A DNA stretch of 64,000 nt from a virus (IMGVR_UViG_3300027804_002460:1513-65512); one strand, 5' to 3'; counted from the stretch's first letter, positions 2,660-60,822 are shown. Made by a program: numbers and translations. The notes: generated by a model not told the origin, from the letters alone.

Positions 2660-3685
2660 TTATGGTTGGGTATCACTACCTCTAAAATAAATATTGTTAT
2701 TATTGTTTAATCTAAATATTTGGTTAGGGAATGTCGTATAAACTCGATAAGTTCCTGAAGGAATTGTTGATCCTGTGTAATTAACTAAATAACTATTAAT
2801 TGTAGGTTCAGTTCCAACAGATTCTTGTTGAGTTGGGTTACCCATTGCATTTATGTAGATTTCAGTTTGTATTTCATTGTTTGTTGCAATTACAGGAATA
2901 AACCAAGTGTACCACGCTTTTGAAAGTACTGTACCTGATTTAATTTCTGTTGTGAAGAAATTATATTTACTAATTGGATTTCCAAATGCATCATCACCAC
3001 CTGTAGTCTGTGGAACAGATTGAACGACTATACTTGGGAATTGCCCATTAGTCCATGAAGCATAATTCATATATAAATTCATATCTATATTGAATTGTGT
3101 CTGACTTTGTGTTGGTTGAGAAGCATTAGTAAATCCAAAGAAGTTAGAACCATTTGCGTACATATAAGATCCAATTGCGGATGATCCTGAAACAGGTTCT
3201 ATAAACAAGTATGCGAAATAGTTTGGAGGTGTAGTTGGCGTCGGCGTTGGCGTCGGCGTCGGTGTTTGTGACAAACAAGGAGGAAGAGTAGTCGTTGGTG
3301 TAGGTGTAGGTCTTGGAGTCCTTGTTGGTGTTGGAGTTGGGTTTTGTGTTGGTGCAGGTGTTGCAGAAGCACAAGGTTCGTATGTTGGTGTTACTGTAGG
3401 TGTTGGTGTTGGTGTAGGAGTCGCAGTTCTTGTTGGTGTTACTGTAGGTGTTGGTGTTGGTGTAGGACGTGGTACTTGTAATATGTTAGTACATTTGTCT
3501 TCATATGTATAAATTGTGTATGTTCCGTAAACTTCTCTTGGTGGGATTAATAACGAAGGTTCAAAAACCAAAGGTAATGTTACATCACCCAAATTTATTA
3601 CAACAGGATCATTATCAGGCGTGAACAAAACATTGGCTAATTCACCGTCGTGATTGATACTATTTATTGTAATAATTTGACTCAT
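2660..3685 (-). CDS. Putative virion protein with long Pro-Thr linker
   Basis: ORF track 2660..3706; likely start MSQII at 3685, with a TATTTATT motif 18 nt upstream. (PT)n/TPTP tracts at ~3236-3470. Confidence 0.7.
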   Translation of the reverse strand: MSQIITINSINHDGELANVLFTPDNDPVVINLGDVTLPLVFEPSLLIPPREVYGTYTIYTYEDKCTNILQVPRPTPTPTPTVTPTRTATPTPTPTPTVTPTYEPCASATPAPTQNPTPTPTRTPRPTPTPTTTLPPCLSQTPTPTPTPTPTTPPNYFAYLFIEPVSGSSAIGSYMYANGSNFFGFTNASQPTQSQTQFNIDMNLYMNYASWTNGQFPSIVVQSVPQTTGGDDAFGNPISKYNFFTTEIKSGTVLSKAWYTWFIPVIATNNEIQTEIYINAMGNPTQQESVGTEPTINSYLVNYTGSTIPSGTYRVYTTFPNQIFRLNNNNNIYFRGSDTQP

Positions 3686-3733
3686 TGTATTTCTCAATAA
3701 ATACAACCATAACCTTATTTATATCTTTTTGAT

Positions 3734-5980
3734 TTAACCTAAAGTAAAAGAAACTCTACCTGTTGACCCCGTTGTTGTTGTAGTTGTTGTTGTCACATCA
3801 TTAGAAATGATATATGTATAATCATTAGGAGCACATGTTTCAGTATTACAAACAGGACAATCAGGATCAAACATCATGAATTTATCTTTCAATAATTTAA
3901 AATTATGTTTGACTTCAGGTGCCGATAAAGGTTCTGTATAAAATCTAAATTGAGATATACCACCTTCAAAAGTTCCTGCAAAATTTTCTTCTAAAAGAAT
4001 GTGAGTTTTAAGTTTATTTAAGGTTGTTGCACTTAAAATATTTTCAGGAAAACATTCAGGATCTTGTATATAATCACCAATTGTTGTTGCTGTACAAGCA
4101 GATAATGTTAGATTTTCATGTAAACCTTGAGTTCCTCCACCCCAAGACATGTTAAATGGAACCGCAACTTGTTTTTCTTTATCGGTATCCAAAGCTCTTG
4201 GTATTACTTCTTCAAAATCCTCAATTGTAAAAAATATTCTACCATTTACAAAAATTCTTAATCTTCCTCTTCTAAATTTTGTCTCATCCAACCATGTTTG
4301 ATTTAGTTGTACTATTTCAACTTGTTTTGGAATTTCATACCCGTTTGTAACTGGTGGTTCAATCAAAGAAACTGTGTTATTTGCAAGTGATGCCAAATAC
4401 TCAAGTCTTGTTATCTGATCTAAACCTCCAAACCATCTTAAATCACAATAATCAATAAAAGTGTATCTTTCAAATACAACATCTAGTTGGAACCAATGCT
4501 CGTACTCCAACCAAGCGGGATTAGTTTGTAAACAAAAAGGATAAATTGGTGGTGTACAAATATCTTGTATTGTGTATCCAGTTACATATGTTTGTCCTGT
4601 TACACATGTTCCTGTAGTCTCACAATCTCCCGTTATTTTTAAAACTCTAATACCAATTCCGGGATTTTTTGGGTCACCACATAATCTGATTGAGAAATTG
4701 TTTGATAGTGCATCAAACTTAGGATCTTTTTCACATGTATCCTCAATTGATGAAAATGTGTCAGATGGATATGCGGGTGGACAACCACAACTATCACACC
4801 CACAACTAACACATGTTGTACAACAAGGTTTTGGTGGACATGCAACTTGTGTTGGGTATGTATCACAATTAGGTGTCGGGGTTGGTGTCGGGGTTGGCGT
4901 AGGAGAAGGTACTATAATTGTATTACATTTATGTTCAAAACACATCCAACCACAAGTAAGACAAGGATCTAAATCACAACCACAACCACAAGTAAGTTTG
5001 GTTTCATAATTTCCATGACAAAGATTACAACCATAATTAAAATGTGGATCGTAGACACCGCCAATTGGTCTTGGTGGGTATACGTATATACATCTACTAT
5101 TCTTTACTTCATAATTGCAACACGCACATGTTTGAAAGCATCCTGCTAATTCTGAAGTAACCCTAACATAATTAGGATCACATTTTGGTGAACCGTCCGC
5201 ATAATGATAAAATTTATTCTCAGCTCTTGTTCCTAAATAAAATAAAGTATTTTTATTATTTGGGTAAATTTGATTTAATGTTTCGTATCCAGGTTTTGGG
5301 ATGTATTCATTAATCAGTCTAGGTTTTAAGATCATTTCTACAGACCAACCTTTTTTCATTCTTTCAGGTAAGATTTCATAATCATAACCAAATAATTTAT
5401 AAAATCCTTGATAAAACCCACCATATAATTCAACGTATCTACCCACTTGTGGATTATTTTTAGATACCATTTCATAAGCCGTATATTTTGGTATTCCTGA
5501 AAATTTATTATTTTGTGGGACATTTGTAGTTGTTTGAATAAACTTCATTCGTCTATCATAAAACATTCTATCAAACTTAACAGCGTCTGTGAATAAACCA
5601 TTTGTATAGTTTAAAGTTTCACCAACAATATTGTCAACTAAACCATTATCTATTCCCGTTAAACCAATATCACAAGTTGTACCTGCGGTAAAACAATCAA
5701 TTCGTAAATCCTTAGGTTCATAAAATGATTCTGAGATTACAACATTATTAGGGTTATATACACCATAGGTTAATTTTAAGTTTTGAGTTGATAATGGACT
5801 ATTCAAATCAACATTCACAGGTAATTTCTCACCATTGTCGGCACCTATTATATATGGAGAAAAAACTACCTCTTGATTAAAGTCTACCTCATCAGACGCC
5901 AAAGACATATCTTGCCCATCATAAATGAGTTGTAACTTTAACTTTGGGTAGTTATATTGATTTATATTTTGGTATGCCAT
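3734..5980 (-). CDS. Putative virion protein: Cys-rich segment, PT linker, C-terminal LamG/concanavalin-like domain
   Basis: 748 aa ORF. CCTTCVSCGCDSCGC cluster; C-terminal RLRIFVNG...FEGGISQFRFYTEPLSAPEV resembles the end of LamG-like folds. Confidence 0.6.
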   Translation of the reverse strand: MAYQNINQYNYPKLKLQLIYDGQDMSLASDEVDFNQEVVFSPYIIGADNGEKLPVNVDLNSPLSTQNLKLTYGVYNPNNVVISESFYEPKDLRIDCFTAGTTCDIGLTGIDNGLVDNIVGETLNYTNGLFTDAVKFDRMFYDRRMKFIQTTTNVPQNNKFSGIPKYTAYEMVSKNNPQVGRYVELYGGFYQGFYKLFGYDYEILPERMKKGWSVEMILKPRLINEYIPKPGYETLNQIYPNNKNTLFYLGTRAENKFYHYADGSPKCDPNYVRVTSELAGCFQTCACCNYEVKNSRCIYVYPPRPIGGVYDPHFNYGCNLCHGNYETKLTCGCGCDLDPCLTCGWMCFEHKCNTIIVPSPTPTPTPTPTPNCDTYPTQVACPPKPCCTTCVSCGCDSCGCPPAYPSDTFSSIEDTCEKDPKFDALSNNFSIRLCGDPKNPGIGIRVLKITGDCETTGTCVTGQTYVTGYTIQDICTPPIYPFCLQTNPAWLEYEHWFQLDVVFERYTFIDYCDLRWFGGLDQITRLEYLASLANNTVSLIEPPVTNGYEIPKQVEIVQLNQTWLDETKFRRGRLRIFVNGRIFFTIEDFEEVIPRALDTDKEKQVAVPFNMSWGGGTQGLHENLTLSACTATTIGDYIQDPECFPENILSATTLNKLKTHILLEENFAGTFEGGISQFRFYTEPLSAPEVKHNFKLLKDKFMMFDPDCPVCNTETCAPNDYTYIISNDVTTTTTTTTGSTGRVSFTLG

Positions 5981-8788: not shown

Positions 8789-10000
8789 ATGTCTAAAATT
8801 AAAGTATTAGTATTACCTTCCGACACAAGTGGTGTTGGTAAATATCGTTCAGTAGATCCACACATCAATCTACAAAATTTATATCCTAATGATTTCCACA
8901 TTGATATTGATTATAAACCAAGAATTAATGATTTGAATTATTGGCAAAATTATCAAATAGTTCATTTTCATAGAAATTTTGGTGATTTGGATCAATGTCC
9001 AACAATAATTAAGTCTTTGAGGAGTTTGGGTATTATTGTAATTGCAGATATTGACGATTATTGGTTACCTACAAAAGAACACCCAATTCACAACCTAATT
9101 ATTAATGATAAAATGCACCTTAAGATTGTAGAAAATCTAAAGGCGTCAGATTATGTAACAACAACTACAGAAATTTTTGCTAACGAAATTAGAAAATTTA
9201 ACAAAAATGTTATTGTTTTCCCTAACGCAATTGATCCAAAAGAAGGTCAGTTTACAGAACCAACACTTCCTTCTGATAAAGTTCGTGTTGGTTGGTTAGG
9301 TGGATCATCACATTTACATGATTTAAAGTTGTTAGATGGTATGGTTAATAAACTTTCTCCTCTACAAGAAAAATTACAATACTATCTTTGTGGTTTTGAC
9401 ACAAGAGGAAGTGTTACAGAAATTAACAAAGATACTGGAGAAAAAAGACAAAGACCGATTAAGCCTCAAGAAACGGTTTGGTCGATGTATGAACATATTT
9501 TTACAGACAACTATAAAATTATTTCACCTGAATACAAATTGTTTTTAGATAGATTTAAAGAGGAAGAATATCCCGCAATCAAAACTGAAAACTATGTTAG
9601 AGTTTGGACTAGACCTACTGATTCATACGCAAGAAATTACGCTAAATTTGACATTTCATTAGCACCAATTAAAAATCACATTTTTAATAGAATGAAATCT
9701 CAATTAAAAGTTATTGAGGCCGGATTTTACAAAAAAGCTCTCATAGCCTCCAATATAGGTCCTTACACAATTGATTTGAAACATTCATTAAAAAATGGTC
9801 AGTTTGTCGATGGAAATGCATTATTAGTTGATGAGTCAAAAAATCATAGTGATTGGGTAAAAAATATTAAAAAACTTGTTGAAAACCCGAATATGATTGT
9901 AGATCTTGGTGAAAGGTTATACGAAACCGTAAAAGACAAATATGATATAAACAATGTGTCACGTGAAAGAGCATCATTTTACAAATCTTTAATTAAATAA
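8789..10000 (+). CDS. Glycosyltransferase, GT-B fold (GT4-like)
   Basis: Likely start MSKIKVLVLPSD. DIDDYW, VGWLGGSSHLHDL, FNRMKSQLKVIEAG motifs typical of phage GT4-like enzymes. Confidence 0.8.
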   Translation: MSKIKVLVLPSDTSGVGKYRSVDPHINLQNLYPNDFHIDIDYKPRINDLNYWQNYQIVHFHRNFGDLDQCPTIIKSLRSLGIIVIADIDDYWLPTKEHPIHNLIINDKMHLKIVENLKASDYVTTTTEIFANEIRKFNKNVIVFPNAIDPKEGQFTEPTLPSDKVRVGWLGGSSHLHDLKLLDGMVNKLSPLQEKLQYYLCGFDTRGSVTEINKDTGEKRQRPIKPQETVWSMYEHIFTDNYKIISPEYKLFLDRFKEEEYPAIKTENYVRVWTRPTDSYARNYAKFDISLAPIKNHIFNRMKSQLKVIEAGFYKKALIASNIGPYTIDLKHSLKNGQFVDGNALLVDESKNHSDWVKNIKKLVENPNMIVDLGERLYETVKDKYDINNVSRERASFYKSLIK

Positions 10001-13399: not shown

Positions 13400-14023
13400 A
13401 TGAACTTAAATAATTTATCAAAATCAATTTATGTTATCAATCTGAAAGAAAGGACTGACAGAAAAGAACATATCGTTAAAGAATTAAACAAAATTAGTTG
13501 TAATGAATACAATATTATTGATGCAGTTGACGGGTCTAAAATTGAAAACCATTCAAGAATCAAAAAAGGCGCATTTGGGTTATTGATGACCTACAAAAAC
13601 ATTTATAATGATTGGAAAAATAAAGGTGGATCCGACGTTTTGATTGTTGAGGATGATTGTATGTTTATAGATAACTTTAATGTTCACCTTGAGACATACA
13701 CTAAGTCAGTTCCTACAAATTGGGACATGATGTATTTTGGAGCAAATCACAACTACCATATGGGTCAACAAACCCAAAAAATTAACGATTATTGTGTTAA
13801 GACAAATAATAGTTATTCCGCTCACTGTGTATTAATGAAACCTTATATCTTTGAGGAATTAATTAAAATGATTAATAATCAACCGTTAGAAGTCGACGTT
13901 TTAATGGCTCAATTACAAAAAAAATATAATTCATATTCTTCTCATATTGCCCTAACAACACAGATACCGAGTTATTCAAATATTGAGAATAAACCTGTTG
14001 ATAACGTGTGGTTAATAAAATGA
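13400..14023 (+). CDS. Glycosyltransferase family 25 (LgtB/Lex-like)
   Basis: YVINLKERTDRK...DAVDG...LIVEDDC. Confidence 0.85.
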   Translation: MNLNNLSKSIYVINLKERTDRKEHIVKELNKISCNEYNIIDAVDGSKIENHSRIKKGAFGLLMTYKNIYNDWKNKGGSDVLIVEDDCMFIDNFNVHLETYTKSVPTNWDMMYFGANHNYHMGQQTQKINDYCVKTNNSYSAHCVLMKPYIFEELIKMINNQPLEVDVLMAQLQKKYNSYSSHIALTTQIPSYSNIENKPVDNVWLIK

Positions 14024-14832
14024 TTTTAACGTCATTTTTGATGGGGGGATTAGGAAATCAGATGTTCCAAATCTCAAAGGCGGTATGTGAAGGATTAACA
14101 AACAACATTCAGGTGGGATTTCAAAAATCGGCATTTATACCAATGCACGGTAATCAACCTACAAAATACCTAACAAATATTTTTAGAAATGTTAATTTTG
14201 TTGACATACTACCAAATAGACTTAGAGTTCCTGAACCAAATTGGTCATACAACAAATTAAATATAACTTACGATAAACCAATTGAATTTTATGGTTACTT
14301 CCAAAGTAGTAAAAACTTCAATGGTCACGGAGATTATTTAAAAAATATGTTTTCCCCAACGAAGGAATTCATTGACAAAGTCAATTTTTTATATCCAAAC
14401 ATCTCAGATCATAAAACGGTATCTATTCACGTAAGACGTGGTGATTATTTGGGTATTTCAGAAATTTTACCTGTAATTGACAAATCATATATAGATGAAT
14501 GTTTAAGTCGTATTAGTGATTACGATAAAATATATATTTTCTCAAACGACAAGGAGTGGTGTAAACAAAATCTAAACTACGAAAAATCAGAAATTGTTTA
14601 TGATTTAGAAGATTACGAAGAATTATGGATGATTAGTTTATGTAAAATAAACGTAATGTCTAATTCTTCATTTTCTTGGTGGGGATCTTATCTTAATATA
14701 AATGAAAATAAAAAAATATATTGTCCCTCAGTATGGTTTGGACCAAAAGGTGAAAAGAATTATCAAGATATTTATGAAGATAATTGGAATAAAATAGATG
14801 TTCAGTACGTACTCGGGAAATTATTATGTTAA
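14020..14832 (+). CDS. GT11 alpha-1,2-fucosyl/colitosyltransferase
   Basis: GGLGNQMFQ, GYFQS, SIHVRRGDY, MSNSSFSWWG motifs. Confidence 0.9.
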   Translation: MILTSFLMGGLGNQMFQISKAVCEGLTNNIQVGFQKSAFIPMHGNQPTKYLTNIFRNVNFVDILPNRLRVPEPNWSYNKLNITYDKPIEFYGYFQSSKNFNGHGDYLKNMFSPTKEFIDKVNFLYPNISDHKTVSIHVRRGDYLGISEILPVIDKSYIDECLSRISDYDKIYIFSNDKEWCKQNLNYEKSEIVYDLEDYEELWMISLCKINVMSNSSFSWWGSYLNINENKKIYCPSVWFGPKGEKNYQDIYEDNWNKIDVQYVLGKLLC

Positions 14833-50939: not shown

Positions 50940-52796
50940 TTATTTAACTTCCTCGAACTCTACATTTGCAAAGTCTTCTTCTGTTGCTTCAGCGTTGTTT
51001 GTTTGTTCATACAACTTCTGACTTATGGTTTGGAATTTTTTATTAACCTCTTCCATTAAAATTTTTACTTCTGAAATGTCTTTCTTGTCGTAAGCCGATT
51101 TTAATTTATCGATTGATGAATTAATTTCAGTTTTTTCATCTTCAGTAATTTTACCTTCGAGATCTTCCATAGATTTACCGACTTGGAAAATTAATGAGTC
51201 AGCGGAGTTTAAAGTATCAACTTCCTCTTTTAATTTTTTATCAGCTTCCGCATTCATTTCAGCTTCTTGTTTCATTCTCTCAACTTCTTCTTTTGATAGA
51301 CCTGAAGATGACTCAATTCGGATTGATTGTTGTTTGTTAGTTGCTTTATCAACTGCAGATACATTTATAATACCATTTGCATCGATATCAAAGGTTACCT
51401 CGATTTGAGGAGTTCCTCTTCTTGCTGGTGGTAATCCATCAAGGTGGAATTTACCAATAGTTCTGTTATCTCTTGCCATTGCTCTTTCACCTTGTAAAAC
51501 ATGTATTTCTACTGTTGGTTGATTATCTGCAGCTGTTGAGAATGTTTCTGATTTTTTTGTTGGGATAGTTGTGTTTGCATCAATCAATTTTGTAAATACA
51601 CCTCCCATAGTTTCAATACCTAATGAAAGTGGAGTTACGTCTAACAACAATACGTCTGTCACATCACCAGCTAAAACACCTCCTTGAATCGCAGCTCCCA
51701 AAGCAACTACCTCATCAGGATTTACCCCTTTTGAAGGTTCTTTACCAAAGAATTTTTTAACTGCTTCTTGGATGGAAGGAATACGAGTAGATCCACCAAC
51801 TAAAATAATCTCATCAATATCAGATGGTTTTAGTTTGGCATTTTTCAAAGCGGATTCACAAGGTTTAATTGTTCTATCAACCAATGATTGTGTTAATTGA
51901 TCAAACTTAGATTTTGTGATAGTCATTACTAAGTGTTTTGGTCCTGTTGCATCTGCAGTTACATATGGTAAGTTAATTTCAGTTTGAGGTGAAGAAGATA
52001 ACTCAATTTTAGCCTTTTCAGCCGCCTCACGAAGTCTCTGAAGTGCCATAGGATCTTTTGAAATATCCATACCATTTTCTTTTTTGAATTCGGAAACTAA
52101 GTGGTCAATTAAAGCCTGATCAAAGTCATCCCCACCTAAGTGAGTGTCCCCGTCAGTTGCTAACACCTCAAATACACCGTCACCAAGTTCCAATACTGAT
52201 ACGTCATGTGTTCCACCACCACAGTCAAATACTACAATTTTCATGTCTTTTGACATTTTATCAAGACCATAAGCCAAAGCCGCGGCTGTTGGTTCATTGA
52301 TAATTCTTTTTACTGTAAGACCAGCAATTTCACCAGCTTCTTTAGTCGCTTGACGTTGAGCATCGTTAAAATAAGCAGGAACTGTGATTACGGCTTCAGT
52401 TACAGATTGACCTAAATAGTCTTCTGCCGTTTGTTTCATTTTTTGAAGGACGGCCGCTGAGATTTCTTGTGGTGAATAAGTTCTATCGTTAATTTGAACT
52501 TTTGGTGAGTTATTTTCTTTAATAACTTTGTAAGGGACCTTTGTTGTTTCATTTTTAACCTCATCAAAAGATGATCCCATAAATCTTTTAATTGAGTAAA
52601 TTGTTTTGTCAGGGTTTGTTACCGCTTGACGTTTTGCAGGATCTCCGATTTTTCTTTCACCGTCTTTAATAAACCCCACAATTGATGGTGTTGTTCTTTT
52701 TCCTTCACTGTTAGCAATAACCACAGGTTCCTTGCCTTCCATTACGGCAACACACGAGTTAGTTGTTCCCAAGTCAATTCCAATTATTTTTCCCAT
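50940..52796 (-). CDS. dnaK: Hsp70 chaperone DnaK
   Basis: [43 protein letters not shown]-terminal VEFEEVK. Confidence 0.98.
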
Positions 52797-52842
52797 TTTT
52801 TTATCATTTTATTTTTATGTTTATTTTTTCCACACTTTTTAC

Positions 52843-52873
52843 CAAATATATGCCATTCCATAAAACCTGTCAA
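52843..52873 (-). promoter_or_regulatory. Bacteroidota-type sigma70 promoter for dnaK
   Basis: TTG-N20-TATATTTG on the minus strand. Confidence 0.6.
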
Positions 52874-52966
52874 TATGTCAGTATATTTTTTTTTATACTG
52901 ACAAAATAACAATATTGGACTTTTCTAAATTTATTTATTAGTTTTTGAATGTAAAACAATAGAAGT

Positions 52967-55006
52967 ATGTTAGAATTTATGGATGAAGGAAATGATAAAG
53001 CGAAAAAAAAGTCTGATTCAGGAACACCTGTGTTAGATAATTTTAGCAAGGATTTAAACAAATTAGCTCAAGAAGGTAAATTAGATCCTGTAATTGGTAG
53101 AAAGAAGGAAATCTTAAGGATTGCTCAGATACTTTCTCGAAGAAAGAAAAATAACCCAATTATTATTGGTGAGCCAGGTGCAGGAAAAACTGCAATCGTT
53201 GAGGGTCTTGCCATGATGATTCATGATGGTGAGTGTCCTAAGAATTTAATGGATAAAAGAATTGTTTCTTTAGACATGAATTCTTTGGTTGCTGGAACAA
53301 AATACCGTGGTCAGTTTGAAGAAAGAATGAAGGTAATCATTGAAGAACTTCAATCATCCCCAAACATCATCTTGTTTATTGACGAGATTCATACAATAGT
53401 TGGTGCGGGAAATAGTTCAGGTTCATTAGATGCATCTAACATCTTCAAACCTGCACTTTCTCGAGGTGAAATTCAGTGTATTGGTGCAACTACTTTAGAT
53501 GAGTATAGAACTAACTTTGAAAAGGACGGAGCATTAGAAAGAAGATTCCAAAAGGTAGTTGTGGATCCTGCAACAAAAGATGAAACTTTTGAAATCCTTA
53601 AATTAAGTAAGGAAAAGTATGAAGATCACCATAAAGTGACTTATGATGATGAGACGTTATGGACATTTGTTGAGTTAGCGGACCGTTATATTACAGATCG
53701 TGAGTTTCCTGATAAGGCTTTTGATATCTTGGATGAGGTTGGTGCAAGAATGCAAATTGACATAAAACTTCCTGAAGTTATTGAGAACTTAAAAGATGAG
53801 GCTAACAAAATTAAACAAGAAAAAATAAACGTAATCAAAAGACAAGACTACGAACAAGCCGCAGAACTCCGTGATCGTGAAAGAGGTGTAATTGCAAAAC
53901 TTGAGGAAGAAAAGAAAAAATTTGAGGAACATTTGAGAAGTAGTAAAAGAACTATTCCTGAAGAATTAGTTTACGAGGTTGTTTCAAACATGACTAAAAT
54001 CCCAATTTCAAACATCAATCTTGATGAAAGGAATAATCTTATTAATTTGACTGATAATTTGAGTTCAAAAGTAATTGGTCAAGAAGAAGCGGTTTTAAAA
54101 ATTACAAAAGCAATCCGTAGAAATAGAATGGGTATTAAAGACCCAAATAAACCAATCGGTTCATTTATTTTCTTAGGATCTACAGGTGTTGGTAAAACAT
54201 ATTTGGCAAAACAATTGGCAAAAGAAATCTTTGGAAGTGAAGATAATATGATTCGTGTGGACATGAGTGAATACCAAGAAAAACATACTATTTCTCGTTT
54301 GATCGGATCACCTCCAGGATATGTTGGTCATGATGAAGGAGGTCAATTAACAGAACAAGTTAAAAACAAACCTTACTCTGTTGTATTATTTGATGAGATT
54401 GAAAAAGCTCACAAAGACATTTTCTCAACACTTCTTCAGTTGTTAGATGATGGTCACATTACGGATTCATTAGGTCGTAAGATCAACTTCAAAAATTGTT
54501 TGATCATTATGACTTCCAATATTGGTGTTAAAAGATTACAAGATTTTGGTGCTGGTGTTGGATTCAAAACAGGTAAAAGTGAGGCGGTTAGAGAAGAAGA
54601 GAAAAGAGAAATTCTTAAAAAAGAACTAAGTAAATTCTTCGCCCCTGAATTCTTAAATCGTATTGATGATGTAGTTATATTCAATTCACTTGAAAAGAAA
54701 CATATTGATGTAATTACAAAACTTGAGGTTGACAGACTACTAAAAAGAGTCTTAGAAAAGAAATATATTTTCACTTATGAACAAGATCTAATCGATTACA
54801 TTTCTAAAGTGGGATTTGATGAAACATTTGGAGCTCGACCAATCAAAAGAGCAATCCAAGATAAAATTGAGGATTTAATTTCTGAAAAAATCTTGATGAT
54901 GGAGATCGAAGAAAATAAAGACTATGTCTTGAAAGTTGAGAATGATGAGGTTGTTGTTTCTAATAAAGAAGAAAAAGTTAAAAAAACAAGAAAAAAGAAA
55001 GAATAA
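52967..55006 (+). CDS. clpC: ClpC-like Hsp100 AAA+ ATPase lacking the N-terminal domain
   Basis: Two NBDs (GEPGAGKT, GSTGVGKT), UVR-type M domain (DYEQAAELRD), GVGF ClpP-docking loop; sequence starts at TPVLDNFSKDL. Confidence 0.85.
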   Translation: MLEFMDEGNDKAKKKSDSGTPVLDNFSKDLNKLAQEGKLDPVIGRKKEILRIAQILSRRKKNNPIIIGEPGAGKTAIVEGLAMMIHDGECPKNLMDKRIVSLDMNSLVAGTKYRGQFEERMKVIIEELQSSPNIILFIDEIHTIVGAGNSSGSLDASNIFKPALSRGEIQCIGATTLDEYRTNFEKDGALERRFQKVVVDPATKDETFEILKLSKEKYEDHHKVTYDDETLWTFVELADRYITDREFPDKAFDILDEVGARMQIDIKLPEVIENLKDEANKIKQEKINVIKRQDYEQAAELRDRERGVIAKLEEEKKKFEEHLRSSKRTIPEELVYEVVSNMTKIPISNINLDERNNLINLTDNLSSKVIGQEEAVLKITKAIRRNRMGIKDPNKPIGSFIFLGSTGVGKTYLAKQLAKEIFGSEDNMIRVDMSEYQEKHTISRLIGSPPGYVGHDEGGQLTEQVKNKPYSVVLFDEIEKAHKDIFSTLLQLLDDGHITDSLGRKINFKNCLIIMTSNIGVKRLQDFGAGVGFKTGKSEAVREEEKREILKKELSKFFAPEFLNRIDDVVIFNSLEKKHIDVITKLEVDRLLKRVLEKKYIFTYEQDLIDYISKVGFDETFGARPIKRAIQDKIEDLISEKILMMEIEENKDYVLKVENDEVVVSNKEEKVKKTRKKKE

Positions 55007-55053
55007 TTTTTTTATTAACAATTATTCAACTATCTTTGTGGAAACAATTTGAA

Positions 55054-56079
55054 ATGGATCTAAATAAATTTAAAGAACTCCTATCTGTCCCTACCAAGAC
55101 CTATAAGGAAAGTAAAATGGTAGAGTATTTAATTTCTACCATTGGGGATATGGATGGAGTTACTCTTACTTGTGACGAACATAATAACATATATGCGGTT
55201 AAAGGAACATTGGGTGAAGGGGAATTTTACCCAATGTTCATTTCTCACACAGACACAGTTCACGAACTTGTTGACCTTATTGATGTAAAAGAAGAATACC
55301 TTCTCCGTCCATATACATTTGGAAAAGATTTTGGTCAAGAACAAGTATTGTGTTTAAAAGCCTACGACAAAGATGGGAGACCGACAGGTATTGGTGGTGA
55401 TGACAAATGTGGTATCTACATTTGTTTAGAATTACTCCGTCAGTTAGATAAAGTCAAAGTTGCATTTTTTGTATCAGAAGAAACAGGTTGTCATGGATCA
55501 AAATTGGTAAATAAAGAGTTTTTAAAAGATGTTGGTTATTGTACTCAATACGATGCACCTGGCGATCACTTAATTTCATACTCTTGTATGGGAACCGTAT
55601 TATTTGATAAAGATGGTGAGTTTTTCAATACAGCAATTCGATCAATCACAAAAGGATTTGGTAATGAAATGATGGTTCAGTCTCACCCATACACAGATAT
55701 CATGATGATTAAACAACTATCTGACCTATCTTGTATCAACATGTCTTGTGGTTATTATAACATGCACACAGCAAATGAATTCGTTTGTATTGATGATGTT
55801 GAGAGATCAATTCAGGCAGGTAAAAATATGGTTGAGGATCTTGGGTTAAAAAAATACGAATTCAAAACGGAACCAAAACCAACAACTACCACAACAACTT
55901 TGTTTGATGATGAAAGTCCATTCTACGATGATATTCACCAACTAACATCTATTGATGTGATTGAGGAAAAAGATGGGTTTATAATTGCAGATATCTATGA
56001 TGAAAATCAATTCTATATCGATGATGAGGATGGGTACAAGTTATACGAGATTCTAAAAGAGCGTTATCGTTTTAATTGA
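55054..56079 (+). CDS. M28/M20-family zinc peptidase
   Basis: SHTDTVH, GGDDKCG, SEETG, QYD, YYNMHT; TATCTTTG promoter element at 55031-55038. Confidence 0.75.
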   Translation: MDLNKFKELLSVPTKTYKESKMVEYLISTIGDMDGVTLTCDEHNNIYAVKGTLGEGEFYPMFISHTDTVHELVDLIDVKEEYLLRPYTFGKDFGQEQVLCLKAYDKDGRPTGIGGDDKCGIYICLELLRQLDKVKVAFFVSEETGCHGSKLVNKEFLKDVGYCTQYDAPGDHLISYSCMGTVLFDKDGEFFNTAIRSITKGFGNEMMVQSHPYTDIMMIKQLSDLSCINMSCGYYNMHTANEFVCIDDVERSIQAGKNMVEDLGLKKYEFKTEPKPTTTTTTLFDDESPFYDDIHQLTSIDVIEEKDGFIIADIYDENQFYIDDEDGYKLYEILKERYRFN

Positions 56080-57203
56080 CCCGGAGCGATTCTAAACTCA
56101 GTTGGTTTAAATAGACCTGGCTGAGTTGCCATTGTAATTACTTCATTAGGAGTTGATAAACCATACTGACGATCCCCAAAGTAAGAATTTCTACCTACTA
56201 TATATTTTACTTTTAAGGTTTCAGGATCAACTTCCTCAACTCTGATAAACATATTTGTTTGACCTGGTATTTTTACACCGCTATTTTGAAAAAGACCTAA
56301 TGCACTAAGTTTATCCATAGTTTTTGAGTATTCAGGAGAAAATTCTTCTTGAGCCCTTTCTATATACTCATCAATTAAATTTACCAATTTTTCACAGGAT
56401 TGAGATTCAAACATTTCATTATCCATTACATAATATTCCATCTCATAATGTTCAGGAAGAGAATGTCTAAATTTTTTTTCAATTTTTTGTATTAACAAAT
56501 CAAGGGCTTTTCCATCAAATTCACCATCCTCAACAAATAACTGAACTAGATTACCCCAACTTATAAAATATAATCCAAAACACCACTTACCCCATTTCTC
56601 AACTCCAAAGTCACTTAATGTATCACAATATACCTTTTGTATTTCTTGTTTAGCACCTTCTTCAGTTGCATTTGATTTAGCAGAACATATAATGTCATCC
56701 ATTTCATCTCCAATATTTTGAAAGTATTTGTCCAATACTGAAGTTATTTGACTTTCATCATCAATTCTACTACCGTCTTCTTTAATATTATCAACAAGGT
56801 TAGGTGCAATTATTTTAAGTAATTCTCTTAATCTGATTTTTGCTTCACCACAAAGATAACCTAAAGTATATCCTTCTTGCCAATCATCATATGCTCGTTC
56901 TTGGCACGAATCATAAAAATCGTAAGAACCATAATACATACGATCATAGTTAATAGCATCCCACTCACCGTCAGATCCTTCTTCAAACGCAGGGTAATGA
57001 AAAAATTTCAAAAACTGTTCTAAATCTTCAAAATCAAATAATAAACCATCAGGTTTAATTTGAACCTTATTTAAATCAATGTCATAATCCTTAGTTATGA
57101 ATTCGACATCATCAGGAGACAACTTTCTTTTGTTTAAAAGAAGGATTTTTTGAAAGTCCGTCATTTCAGGAACATCATTTTCAATAAGAAGTCTTTTTTT
57201 CAT
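56064..57203 (-). CDS. Hypothetical protein
   Basis: 379 aa; TATTTATA 13 nt upstream. Confidence 0.75.
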   Translation of the reverse strand: MKKRLLIENDVPEMTDFQKILLLNKRKLSPDDVEFITKDYDIDLNKVQIKPDGLLFDFEDLEQFLKFFHYPAFEEGSDGEWDAINYDRMYYGSYDFYDSCQERAYDDWQEGYTLGYLCGEAKIRLRELLKIIAPNLVDNIKEDGSRIDDESQITSVLDKYFQNIGDEMDDIICSAKSNATEEGAKQEIQKVYCDTLSDFGVEKWGKWCFGLYFISWGNLVQLFVEDGEFDGKALDLLIQKIEKKFRHSLPEHYEMEYYVMDNEMFESQSCEKLVNLIDEYIERAQEEFSPEYSKTMDKLSALGLFQNSGVKIPGQTNMFIRVEEVDPETLKVKYIVGRNSYFGDRQYGLSTPNEVITMATQPGLFKPTEFRIAPGQLKR

Positions 57204-57218
57204 ATATTTATAAATATA

Positions 57219-57249
57219 TTGGATAATACAAATCTTTGTATTATATTTG
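57219..57249 (+). promoter_or_regulatory. Bacteroidota-type promoter for tmRNA
   Basis: TTG-N20-TATATTTG, 21 nt upstream of the mature 5' end. Confidence 0.65.
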
Positions 57250-57270
57250 TATAGAAGTTATTTGACATAT

Positions 57271-57657
57271 GGGGGCGTTTTTGGATTTGACAGGTATTGG
57301 CTGAGGAATAAGGGCATGTAGGGACTGAGTTAATCTCTTTAAAAACTGACTTAGAAAACAACTGGCAATGTGCTAAACAAAATGGAAACTCTTGGATTAG
57401 TAAGAGGTTCTGAAGTTACTGTAGCTTAAGATAAGTTCGGAAACGGGGGGTCGGCAGACATATAACCTAGCAACAGAAGTCGTAGTTGTGGTGGATTACT
57501 ATTGAACCCTAAATCGAATGGTAACCATTGGTTGTTGATTTACGATGGTGAAGAACAAATCAACTATTTTGGGGTATTAGAAAATACCAACCTAAACATG
57601 TAGTCCTTATCTGACAGGATAAGCTGGACGAGGGTTCGAGTCCCTCCGCCTCCACCA
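57271..57657 (+). ncRNA. ssrA: Transfer-messenger RNA (tmRNA), 387 nt, predicted tag (A)GNVLNKMETLGLVRGSEVTVA*
   Basis: 5' GGGGGCG..GGATTTGAC; 3' T-arm GAGGGTTCGAGTCCCTC followed by CGCCTCCACCA; G3:U70 wobble; AACT|GGC resume context at 57364, stop at 57427-57429. Confidence 0.92.
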
Positions 57658-57660
57658 ACT

Positions 57661-57688
57661 AAACCTCATCTTCGGATGGGGTTTTTTT
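57661..57688 (+). terminator. tmRNA terminator
   Basis: AAACCTCATC-TTCG-GATGGGGTTT followed by a T run. Confidence 0.85.
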
Positions 57689-57709
57689 ATACGGTAAAAT
57701 TTAGGGCAT

Positions 57710-57738
57710 AAAAAAAGGGATCGATTCACATCGTCCCT
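57710..57738 (-). terminator. Minus-strand terminator closing the large ncRNA candidate
   Basis: AGGGA-TCGAT-TCAC-ATCG-TCCCT hairpin with an A run on the + strand. Confidence 0.7.
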
Positions 57739-57780
57739 AAATTTTTTACCGGTTAGCTCCATTCTATAAAAGAAATAAAA

Positions 57781-58620
57781 CGCTGAGATTACACGTTTGA
57801 TTGAGAACCTTTAGAGTCATTATTGTTTCTACTCCTATCCACTTCCTTTTGAGAAGTATTTCTCAGTGACGGTCTTTTAGGTGTACCACTCCTTGAGATA
57901 ACAGTTACTCTCTTATTACTCGACTCTCTTCGAGGATGCCTCCCCAACTCATCCTTGCGGGACTAGAGGTGTTTGGTAAGAATACGATCAGACTTGCGAT
58001 CCTTTCGTGCAATGAACGGCTCATTACTATGTAGTCACCTTTCACTGTTACCTGACGGACACTTTTGCTTACTGTAGTTTCATATTGGAAAATATCAACT
58101 TCCATAAGTTTTTGTGTCGTGGATTGTAGAAGTAGTGGTCCGTCACGGGCTTCGCTATCTTTTGAACAACGAAATACTCAACTACTCCTTGAAATGTCCC
58201 CATCTCCATACTTTAAGATTACTTCGAGATCAACCCCTTGGTAGAGGTTTATCAAGGTTAATAACAGCACCACCTGTACACTAACATACCTTTCGGTTTT
58301 AAGTACCCTTTTGTATTGGAACACGCAATAATGAAATCGGATAACTTCATGTTTTGCAATATCCCTACGGGTTATTCCTATTGGTGTTCCCACCTCAATC
58401 AGACGACCCACATCGCCAAATCACTTAACCAGTTTCCCTACAGCGTTGCCCTCGGTACTCAAGCTTAAGCGGTATCCCGCTTGTGTACTCGACCTCGATT
58501 ACTCAAGGCGCAAATCGGTTACACTTCCGACTCACTTTATCCTACTTTCGTAGTTTATTTTATGGACTATACACGGCCCAATATCTTTATCATTCCAAGA
58601 AGAGACTTACATCTCAATCA
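57781..58620 (-). ncRNA. Large structured ncRNA candidate (~840 nt core; GOLLD-like by size and context)
   Basis: Visibly GC-richer than the flanks, no credible ORF, many GNRA-capped hairpins on the minus strand, 5' TGATTGAGA complementary to 3' TCTCAATCA, own promoter and terminator. Confidence 0.65.
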
Positions 58621-58706
58621 CTTGTCAAAGAATCTGACAAAACTTTTCCTGAACGGATAATCTATTTTTTCAAAGAACGTTTCAGGACTTTTCCTGATTT
58701 GTTTTA

Positions 58707-58738
58707 CAAAGTTAAGACATTTATTTTGATCTGTCAAG
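58707..58738 (-). promoter_or_regulatory. Bacteroidota-type promoter for the large RNA
   Basis: TTG(ACA)-N21-TAACTTTG on the minus strand. Confidence 0.6.
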
Positions 58739-58756
58739 CCCTTTGTGGTATTTTTT

Positions 58757-58912
58757 TTAATTTTCTTCGTTTACTTGTGTAGTTTCAACATAAACTTTGT
58801 TGGTCCCGTAGAAGTTCGCTCTTATTTGTGCAAAAATCTCGTTAGATGTCCAAAGCGTTTTACCGTTTGCAATATACGAATACATTTCGATTTCTTTTAC
58901 TTCCTCACTCAT
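58757..58912 (-). CDS. Small hypothetical protein (51 aa)
   Basis: Manual: MSEEVKEIEMYSYIANGKRFWTSNEIFAQIRANFYGTNKVYVETTQVNEEN*; TATTTATA upstream. Confidence 0.55.
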   Translation of the reverse strand: MSEEVKEIEMYSYIANGKTLWTSNEIFAQIRANFYGTNKVYVETTQVNEEN

Positions 58913-58968
58913 CGTTTTTTGTTTTTATATTCAAAATGTAATATAAATACTTCTATTGGTCAAGAAAG

Positions 58969-60321
58969 TTACAATATTTTTTTAATAATATCTTTGATTC
59001 TGTCTGTTTGTTCTTGTAGGGCTTCCTGTTTTGCGATATCTTTTTTGAACGATTCCTCATCACCTCTTGCCAAACTTATCATGGCGTTAAGACCTCCTAA
59101 TCCCATAAGATCCAAAACATTTAATTTTGAGTCGTCTTTACCAGATGATTTACTATCTGTTTTTGCTAAATTATCTGAAGATATTGAATCTGAAGATATT
59201 GAATCTGAAGATTGACCCCCAACTTGGAAATTAGCTAAAACTTCATTTGCTTTTCTTTCTCCCATTGATGAGGTTTGTCCACCGGCATTTTTTGTGACAA
59301 AGTATTTTACAGCATCATCTACGTTTTCAAACTTATCATTTAATGCCGAACCCTCTGGTGCTAAGAAATTGATCATTGCATCTGCAGCCCCTTCAGGATT
59401 ATTTAAATCATCAGGATTACCCTCAAAACCATATTTACGATAGTTAGCTCGACCTGTTATTTGATTGAACCCTCTACCTCTATATTTGTATCCATCACCA
59501 GGATCTGTATTACCTAATTTAATACCTGAATTCCTTCCATAAACACAATCAAAGAATTTTTCATCATCACACTTGTGTTTTTTACATCTTTGTCCTCTAT
59601 CTTTGAATATCTGTATGATTCTACTGTCGTCAGTACCACAATATCCTTTTTCATTTTTTGGTACAAATCCACTCTCTTTACCTATAGTTGCCAATATACC
59701 TAAAACAGGTATCGGATTAGTTATACCTTTATCTTTAAGTTTATCGATAATCATATCAATATTTGACTTTGCTTCTCCCTTATATGCGTTTTGATTAATT
59801 GCTAAATTTGATAAATCAACATCAGAAGGTGATGACTTTCCTTTTTGAGTTGGTTCAGAAACATCCGAACCTGATTTCATACCTTGAGCACTTGATTTAT
59901 GTTCCCAATGCCAAGGTTCGGTTCTTGGATTTTTAAATGGATTAGAGAATCCGAATTTTGATGCGTTTTGGGTTAACCATTTATGTGCCGGATCACCATA
60001 TTTTACTTTAAGATCCACAGCACTCCCCCAACCATGATTAGATGTGCCAGGATAAGCAACAGGAGTATTTGAAGTACCTTTTTTTCTTTTTTTACCCGAA
60101 AGTTTATAATATTTCCAATCAAATATTTTGTCTTGGATTTCATAAGGTCTGTATGAATCCGTAATACCCCAACTTATTCCATCTTTTTTTGCTGCATTAA
60201 CCATTTCAGAGTAAGCATTTGCCGCTTCACTATTTAACTGATGGCCAGATCCAATTGGAGTTAATCCCGATAACTTACCGTTTTGGGCTTCGATTAATAC
60301 TTGTTTTTTTGTTAACATCAA
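58969..60321 (-). CDS. Dual-domain peptidoglycan hydrolase (M15/VanY-like peptidase + GH19 lysozyme-like)
   Basis: SYRPYEIQ...[13 protein letters not shown]...EPWHW (M15); KESG...[15 protein letters not shown] (GH19). Confidence 0.85.
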
Positions 60322-60354
60322 TTAATTGTAATTTATTATAAATATTACAACTAA

Positions 60355-60822
60355 TCAAAACCATTCAGGTATTTCTCTATTTTTCCATTTTGCGAAATCT
60401 TTTTTAGCACCTCGATAGTAATTTCTGTAAGATTCAATTACATCATCAACCTTATATTCATCAGGCATCGCTTTAGGAGGAGTGGTAAAATCTTTGTCAC
60501 AAATATTTGGTAAGTTTGTGACACACCATTCTATAACATCTTGTGACTTATGTCTTTTACCATATCGATATGTGTATTCTTTACACAACTCTAAACCAAA
60601 ATCACATAAGTAAAGATAGTTGGATAAAGACTCTCGAGACCAAATGGCACATGGGTGATTTTTGTGTGATAACTTGTATGGTATATTGGACGTATCGTTA
60701 CTGGTTACATGGTGAACACCACATAAAAGTTGTGCGGTTTCTAATATCATTTTAACAACATGTTTGTCGCAATGATATTTTGCACATTTGTTAGTATCGA
60801 AGTCTAAAAAGAAAATATTCAT
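60355..60822 (-). CDS. Pyrimidine-dimer DNA glycosylase-like protein (DenV family)
   Basis: MNIFFLD...HCDKHVVKMILETAQLL...HKNHPC...EYTYRYGKRHK. Confidence 0.8.
   Translation of the reverse strand: MNIFFLDFDTNKCAKYHCDKHVVKMILETAQLLCGVHHVTSNDTSNIPYKLSHKNHPCAIWSRESLSNYLYLCDFGLELCKEYTYRYGKRHKSQDVIEWCVTNLPNICDKDFTTPPKAMPDEYKVDDVIESYRNYYRGAKKDFAKWKNREIPEWF

Follow-up and report, generated by a model that had tools for sequence, protein, structure and literature searches.

A complete GOLLD RNA gene with a conserved rRNA-style promoter and leader, adjoining a tmRNA gene, in a fragment of a freshwater phage genome

The GOLLD family of large phage RNAs was reportedly described in 2009. The family is defined by a conserved 3' domain and a more variable 5' domain (PMC12286853), and both cage assembly and a phage/tRNA context are documented for it (PMC12286853, PMC12990946). 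The env-38 GOLLD, an RNA of 833 nt from the marine metagenome scaffold JCVI_SCAF_1096627009515, forms a protein-free homo-14-mer nanocage, as determined by cryo-EM (PMC12286853, 2025; PDB 9MEE according to PMC12990946). Its two domains belong to one chain, it assembles without any leader, and its pseudoknot/kissing pair acts as an intermolecular bridge (PMC12286853). Copy numbers vary among the solved GOLLDs, with 10, 12 or 14 chains; the Streptococcus agalactiae GOLLD is a 12-mer at full length and a 10-mer when reduced to the 3' domain (PMC12990946).

The window, i.e., the whole stretch of DNA analyzed here, spans 64 kb of a 65.5-kb IMG/VR virus record whose completeness was estimated by CheckV at 22%, which implies a genome near 300 kb. 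On its minus strand, a gene-free stretch of about 950 nt is a complete, well-conserved copy of GOLLD and a member of RF02032. The comparison with Rfam proposed in the first-pass annotation was carried out by cmscan on the whole window, and GOLLD RF02032 was returned at 58189–57780 (minus strand) with 336 bits and E = 1.3e-95, the gathering score of the model being 150 bits. The match is full-length and untruncated (model positions 1–416 of 416), with posterior probabilities of about 1 throughout. In the cmscan alignment, almost every consensus pair of the 3' domain is formed or compensated, and about seven non-canonical pairs were flagged. This domain (P14–P27, 57780–58189, minus strand) comprises the L14 hairpin with its A-rich loop UCAAAAG, the linker J13/15 and the pseudoknot/kissing pair, in which 58053–58044 can form 10 of 10 pairs with 57905–57896 (8 Watson–Crick and 2 G-U) in the bracketed columns of the model. 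The linker (58127–58054, 74 nt) is A/U-rich and the least conserved part of the RNA body, and, although such a linker sometimes holds a tRNA in GOLLD RNAs, none was called inside it by Rfam and tRNA scans. The RF02032 model represents only the conserved 3' domain, and the remaining approximately 500 nt of the interval were analyzed separately.

GOLLD had been named as the first possibility in the first-pass annotation, which described about 900 nt with no credible ORF and raised GC content, bracketed by a promoter and a terminator. Both the coordinates and these features were borne out, the G+C fraction being 0.40–0.44 within the stretch versus 0.26–0.35 in the flanks. What did not survive was the idea of a new RNA and of the best candidate for an undescribed system, since the RNA is a typical member of the known GOLLD family: it is a GOLLD of the "lake" type, ordinary as a class and an already known kind of RNA. 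Taken as a whole, the locus is very probably a stand-alone GOLLD RNA gene of a freshwater phage of about 300 kb, probably infecting Flavobacteriales (Bacteroidota).

An exact 27-mer from the 3' domain was found in at least 119 IMG/VR contigs, many of them of 100–300 kb, with related contigs of 274–304 kb among the matches. One hundred full-length copies were 71–92% identical to the window, and a set of 79 distinct homologues was used to count promoters, terminators, ORFs and the pairing of the ends discussed below. Conservation was unbroken from about 58600 to 57784, with a dip in the linker (58103–58064), and a separate conserved block was found upstream (58750–58644). The variable segment between the conserved blocks, 58643–58604, is an insertion present in part of the family only.

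The ribosome-rescue/chaperone neighborhood noted in the first-pass annotation was confirmed, as a convergent tmRNA, a phage DnaK, a ClpB-like ATPase and a peptidase are located beside the RNA. According to the gene annotation, DnaK is encoded at 50940–52796, the ClpB-like double AAA+ ATPase at 52967–55006, an M20/M42-type peptidase at 55036–56079, a 379-aa protein with no family match at 56064–57203, and a VanY-domain endolysin at 58969–60321; a DenV-like glycosylase is also among the neighboring genes. The phage proteostasis set formed by DnaK, the ClpB-like ATPase, the peptidase and the 379-aa protein (50940–57203) adjoins the tmRNA, and dnaK has its own Bacteroidota-type promoter at 52873. 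Four tRNA genes are found at 62.1–63.7 kb, 4–6 kb from GOLLD. No SmpB was found in the 65.5-kb fragment, which represents about 22% of the genome.

The host is probably a Flavobacteriales-like member of the Bacteroidota, as judged from three sequence features and in line with the promoter type named in the first-pass annotation. A Shine–Dalgarno-like motif was present upstream of 0 of 50 ORFs; TAnnTTTG was enriched in the window (123 occurrences versus 93 ± 10 in shuffles); and the phage DnaK shares 68–77% identity with DnaK proteins of Bacteroidota, including Flavobacteriales, many of these proteins coming from metagenome bins of lakes. Full TTG-N18-21-TAnnTTTG promoters were found upstream of dnaK, the tmRNA and GOLLD.

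The phage tmRNA is encoded on the plus strand at 57271–57657 and is followed by its own terminator at 57661–57684 (whole feature, 57271–57684; RF00023, 114.5 bits, cut-off 47). It converges on GOLLD, with the two terminators 25 nt apart. Its tag frame is unusually long, with 21 codons, GNVLNKMETLGLVRGSEVTVA, before the stop, and a 21-codon tag is also in frame in related phage tmRNAs called by ARAGORN, e.g., GNVINKLSAVGLIRTEESVAVA. The tmRNA of the window was not called by ARAGORN at default settings and, at lowered stringency, was called with a different, doubtful tag. In 47 of 119 related loci, a homologous tmRNA was found, in each case on the strand opposite to GOLLD, downstream of it and 0.6–3.5 kb from the anchor; no other tmRNA arrangement was found in those loci.

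Other GOLLD phages were sampled from the names in the published alignment. In Caulobacter phage phiCbK, an unannotated permuted tmRNA lies about 0.5 kb from GOLLD (NC_019405.1, 103283–103601); in roseophage DSS3P8, the tmRNA comes 171 nt after GOLLD (positions 9071–9457 of the stretch examined), and in Mycobacterium phage PegLeg 0.4–0.8 kb before it. The distance was 5.7 kb in Erythrobacter phage L02 (positions 13720–14128 of the stretch examined) and about 20 kb in Mesorhizobium phage Cp1R7A-A1 (MT188704.1, 58735–59021, located by search only). No tmRNA was found in the GOLLD phages Acinetobacter AM24, Vibrio PG07 and LR756502.1. In the four isolate phages phiCbK, DSS3P8, L02 and MT188704.1, the tmRNAs are permuted, of the alphaproteobacterial type and well above the Rfam cut-offs; those of phiCbK, DSS3P8 and L02 are unannotated in the stretch shown. 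No tmRNA is mentioned in the GOLLD structure paper (PMC12286853) or in a 2026 review.

The proximity of GOLLD and tmRNA may be read in two ways. Shared residence in the tRNA-gene island of the phage, with no functional meaning, is the simplest reading and the probable one: both genes are placed among tRNA genes in every lineage examined, their relative orientation is convergent, divergent or tandem depending on the lineage, two phages have the tmRNA at distances of 5.7 and about 20 kb, three GOLLD phages lack one, and the 47 syntenic loci of the lineage of the window are all relatives. Against this, a tmRNA is carried by six of the nine sampled GOLLD phage groups, as a raw count, and its distance from GOLLD is no more than 1 kb in four of them, which are unrelated lineages (freshwater Bacteroidota jumbo phages, phiCbK, DSS3P8 and PegLeg). 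In addition, each tmRNA is of the standard or permuted type that its own host has, which speaks for the two genes having come together several times independently. The other reading, that GOLLD cages work with the phage tmRNA in ribosome rescue, beyond mere "tRNA islands", is unlikely; in that case, the cage might store, protect or deliver tmRNA or tRNAs, or engage stalled ribosomes.

Transcription signals were found on both sides of the RNA. The promoter, of the Bacteroidota sigma-A type (−33 TTG, −7 TAnnTTTG), is located at 58707–58737 on the minus strand and was read directly and supported by conservation in homologues. It consists of TTGACA, a perfect −35 hexamer, followed by 17 nt and TAACTTTG, and fits the pattern TTG-N19/20-TAnnTTTG. 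The Bacteroidota-type promoter noted at first reading was confirmed, and this pattern is kept in 76 of the 79 distinct homologues. GOLLD, the phage dnaK and the tmRNA of the window share the promoter type with the rRNA operons of Flavobacteriales. From its position, transcription would start at about 58700.

A 5-bp leader hairpin in a boxB-like position (58682–58697, minus strand) comes directly after the promoter, and its stem shows covariation, with C-G to U-A and A-U to C-G exchanges when the window is compared with the consensus of the family. It is followed by the boxA-like motif GTTCTTTGAAAA (58667–58678, minus strand), identified by its conservation and by a layout as in rRNA leaders; across 51 of 52 aligned homologues, hardly any change is seen in its first ten bases. 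The rest of the leader (58580–58666, minus strand), upstream of the first base of the env-38 construct, contains the variable insertion at about 58643–58604 with two local hairpins, and showed an identity of 0.23–0.27 with a gap fraction of 0.44–0.62 in 100 homologues.

The systems of E. coli rrn and lambda nut are the paradigm of boxB/boxA antitermination. In the rRNA leaders of two Bacteroidota genomes, which may not be those of the host, a promoter of the same type is followed, 20–45 nt downstream, first by a small hairpin and next by GTTCTTT(A/G)A, with 2 of 12 positions different from the boxA-like motif; these near-matches were found by direct reading of the leaders only. The exact 12-mer was absent upstream of 16S in five Bacteroidota genomes, with counts no higher than those of a reversed-pattern control, and a literature search for the motif string gave nothing useful. 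Since the order of hairpin and boxA-like motif matches that of rRNA-operon leaders in Flavobacteriales and Bacteroidia genomes, an antitermination leader is proposed: by analogy, the layout suggests antitermination of the boxB/boxA type, with the boxA-like motif as a putative NusB/NusE-type site.

A structural role of the same motif was also considered, in which CUUUG (58674–58670) would pair with CGAAG (58226–58222) in an extra outer helix closing the 5' domain. This helix was predicted by RNAalifold; over 52 sequences it is paired to 99%, one of the pairs being G-C, G-U or A-U, and, by eye, the distant LR756502 copy could form an equivalent CUUCG/UGAAG pair. However, only one of the five pairs varies at all, and real covariation is thus lacking. 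Moreover, env-38 keeps the 3' strand (GAAGUAA) and yet assembles without a leader (PMC12286853), and the motif also follows promoter and hairpin in rRNA leaders, where no such partner exists. A structural role is therefore improbable, and a putative antitermination site is the reading retained.

At the other end, the 3' trailer and intrinsic terminator occupy 57710–57779 on the minus strand, assigned from folding energy and homologues. The terminator given in the first-pass annotation at 57738–57710 was upheld: a hairpin (57738–57717; −11.4 kcal/mol, z = −3.58) is followed by a run of seven T (57716–57710), 64 nt past the end of the Rfam match. Among the 79 homologues, 64 also have a hairpin with a T-run, at a median distance of 62 nt downstream of that end. 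The consensus terminator scanner missed the hairpin of the window because of a bulge. As a side observation, the single further hit in the search for other RNA families, a sub-threshold match to the Bacteroides sRNA BTnc231 (57657–57778, minus strand; 26.7 bits versus a cut-off of 80.4, E = 0.005) spans the GOLLD trailer, the terminator and the spacer beyond, with a score probably driven by the terminator.

The 5' domain (58190–58579, minus strand), equivalent to P1–P13 of env-38, was assigned from collinearity and covariation, and together with the 3' domain it makes up an RNA body of about 800 nt (58579–57780), the counterpart of the solved env-38 molecule of 833 nt. The covariation analysis, advised at first reading, was based on an alignment of 52 non-redundant copies (alignment A1). 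In the RNAalifold prediction for 58579–58190, 20 helices comprise 98 pairs, 63 of which show compensatory changes. In this alignment, 97.5% of cells are paired, compared with 36–42% when partners are slid by 1–3 columns; none of 500 column shuffles matched any observed measure, and the shuffles gave 37.9 ± 2.8 covarying pairs versus the 63 observed. The construct sequence of env-38, taken from the supplementary table of the cryo-EM paper (PMC12286853), is collinear with the window, motif for motif, between about 58577 and P14, where the Rfam match begins (env-38 residues 1 to about 418), and the 5' domain is therefore of the env-38 type. The shared motifs include a GAAA-capped hairpin followed by GGAUAAAGUG, later conserved junctions and a CAAAA-loop hairpin. 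The GOLLD of LR756502.1, an uncultured phage of 642 kb, scored 275 bits, and its 5' half is 66% identical to that of the window.

A new class of large structured RNA that merely resembles GOLLD would account for the Rfam model covering only the 3' 410 nt and leaving the 5' 500 nt without a family assignment (in this part, cmscan returned no match to ROOL, group I/II introns or RNase P even at E = 1), and for the 5' half having no blastn-level match in GenBank isolate phages, in which only the 3' region is matched. This is nevertheless highly improbable, since the 3' half matches the GOLLD model with a high score over its full length, the published 5' domain of env-38 and the 5' half are collinear, and a conserved 3' domain with a more variable 5' domain is the very definition of GOLLD (PMC12286853). 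Equally far-fetched is that the stretch codes for small proteins or consists of two RNAs (a 5' RNA and a 3' GOLLD core): the four longest frames, of 99 aa (plus strand), 77 aa (minus strand), 66 aa and 59 aa, are intact in only 1–21 of the 79 homologues and, despite the variable linker between the domains, the unit as a whole lies between a single promoter and a single terminator, both conserved, and the env-38 domains form one chain (PMC12286853). The protein-coding reading was rejected because stops or frameshifts break these frames in 58–77 of the 79 homologues and, in the same set, no 3-periodicity of substitutions was found, with variability flat across codon positions. Both domains of this GOLLD are under selection for base pairing rather than for coding.

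The capped stems listed in the first-pass annotation were compared with these structures, and four of the five are real helices. CTAC-GAAA-GTAG and ACC-GAAA-GGT correspond to covarying helices of the 5' domain, and the two GCAA-capped stems (TCC-C-GCAA-GGA and GAT-C-GCAA-GTC) are helices of the RF02032 model in the P14–P27 region. The fifth, AAGCGG-GATA-CCGCTT, is present in the sequence and unsupported as structure: 85% of its cells are paired, and one third of the sequences break its two outer pairs. This hairpin is also disfavored because it excludes a long-range helix (100% paired, with 3 covarying pairs) and a 9-bp helix (94% paired, with 7 covarying pairs). The position of ACC-GAAA-GGT on the 5' cap (A1 columns 652–668, about 58292–58290) is naturally variable; env-38 and several relatives have a longer hairpin with an inserted stem there.

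The 9-nt pairing of the ends (58620–58612 with 57806–57798), also put forward there, fared worse. It is present in the window, where it is unlikely to arise by chance (shuffle p of about 0.005), but in only 3 of the 79 homologues, namely the window and two near relatives, and the others reach 4–5 nt, the same as shuffles. Its 5' arm belongs to the leader insertion, which is absent from most relatives, and the 3' arm is engaged in a helix of the Rfam model. The argument for a closed giant fold from this pairing therefore does not hold. No general leader–trailer processing stem was found either, as duplex energies equaled those of shuffled controls (mean z of +0.16 and −0.28), with 3–5% of sequences below a z of −2. 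A second perfect 9-nt complement was observed between 58334–58326 and 57825–57817 (minus strand), by which a strand of the 5' domain would meet a 3'-domain hairpin in its conserved AAUAAU loop. The loop is invariant, and judging from the complementarity, this could be a tertiary or inter-chain contact, or chance.

Metatranscriptome coverage, another check suggested at first reading, was also obtained, and the GOLLD stretch was found in the RNA libraries of 16 runs. These runs, from freshwater, estuary and river and each from a different study, hold 39–55% of the sampled words of the stretch. Four of them were mapped on 56000–60400. In contigs identical to this phage (two runs), word depth was about 3,100–5,100 for GOLLD, 86–149 for the tmRNA and 8–16 for the adjacent endolysin gene. 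These figures derive from the assembled contigs of runs that had been chosen by means of the stretch itself, with related phages pooled, and they give neither a true level nor true ends. On the same basis, the summed depth over 57764–58645 was 10^3 to 3 × 10^4, with flanks near zero, and cover was low or absent over the leader (58646–58792) and the trailer (57617–57763). The contigs support that GOLLD is transcribed and stable. At 58646–58700, the leader may be removed or merely unassembled, and its low cover is not taken as processing. In one contig of run X4 (depth 15.5), 8 extra letters connect the tmRNA 3' end with its 5' end (57269–57656, plus strand), which could reflect a circular or tandem form, or an assembly artefact.

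The GOLLD identity and the conserved anatomy are the part established here, and from them we infer the later steps of the following course. Host RNA polymerase would start at about 58700 and pass the leader hairpin and the boxA-like motif, where Nus antitermination factors would be recruited. Antitermination would then allow the long, untranslated, folded transcript to escape Rho-dependent termination and to fold in order. Transcription would end at the hairpin and T-run (57738–57710), giving a primary transcript of about 990 nt. The body (58579–57780) would fold into the two GOLLD domains and, by analogy with env-38, would self-assemble, free of protein, into a closed cage of identical copies (probably 14) whose linkers point inward. 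The cage would serve the translation-support module of the phage. Since GOLLD is constantly placed among phage tRNA and tmRNA genes, our best guess, a tentative one, is that the cage holds or shields translation components during infection.

The main value of the analysis is the correct label: this is a bona fide GOLLD and not a new system. In addition, the deep alignment of a very abundant freshwater clade provides a covariation-backed model of the env-38-type 5' domain, and the natural gene has a conserved rRNA-style promoter and leader that were omitted from the solved constructs. Such a leader suggests how the phage may obtain a full-length untranslated RNA of 0.9 kb and offers a handle for expression studies, while the repeated closeness of GOLLD and tmRNA is a testable lead on function.

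Among known systems, ROOL resembles the RNA of the window in being large, ornate, phage-borne and close to tRNA genes, and it forms cages made of RNA only (PMC12286853), but it is unrelated in sequence and fold, and no ROOL model was matched at E = 1. The boxB/boxA leaders of rrn operons share the promoter, the short hairpin and GTTCTTT(A/G)A within about 45 nt, with a long untranslated structured RNA downstream. In contrast, the leader of the window drives a phage non-coding RNA instead of rRNA, and no leader–trailer processing stem was detected.

The closest relative described is env-38, with which the window shares the full 3' domain, the A-rich L14 loop, the linker, the pseudoknot/kissing pair, a collinear 5' domain and a body of about 800 nt; the RNA of the window is phage-borne and located among tRNA genes. 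Unlike env-38, it has a conserved promoter-proximal leader of about 120 nt upstream of the start of the solved construct, its ACC-GAAA-GGT is a shortened form of the longer env-38 hairpin, and its linker contains no tRNA. The window comes from freshwater and env-38 is marine. Regarding the GOLLDs of isolate phages (phiCbK, PegLeg, AM24, DSS3P8 and PG07), they match RF02032 at 150–216 bits and share the tRNA-island context, several with a tmRNA nearby, while their 5' domains, like that of S. agalactiae GOLLD, are shorter than or unrelated in sequence to that of the window. With 336 bits compared with 150–216 in these phages, the RNA of the window is closer to the "lake" archetype of the family.
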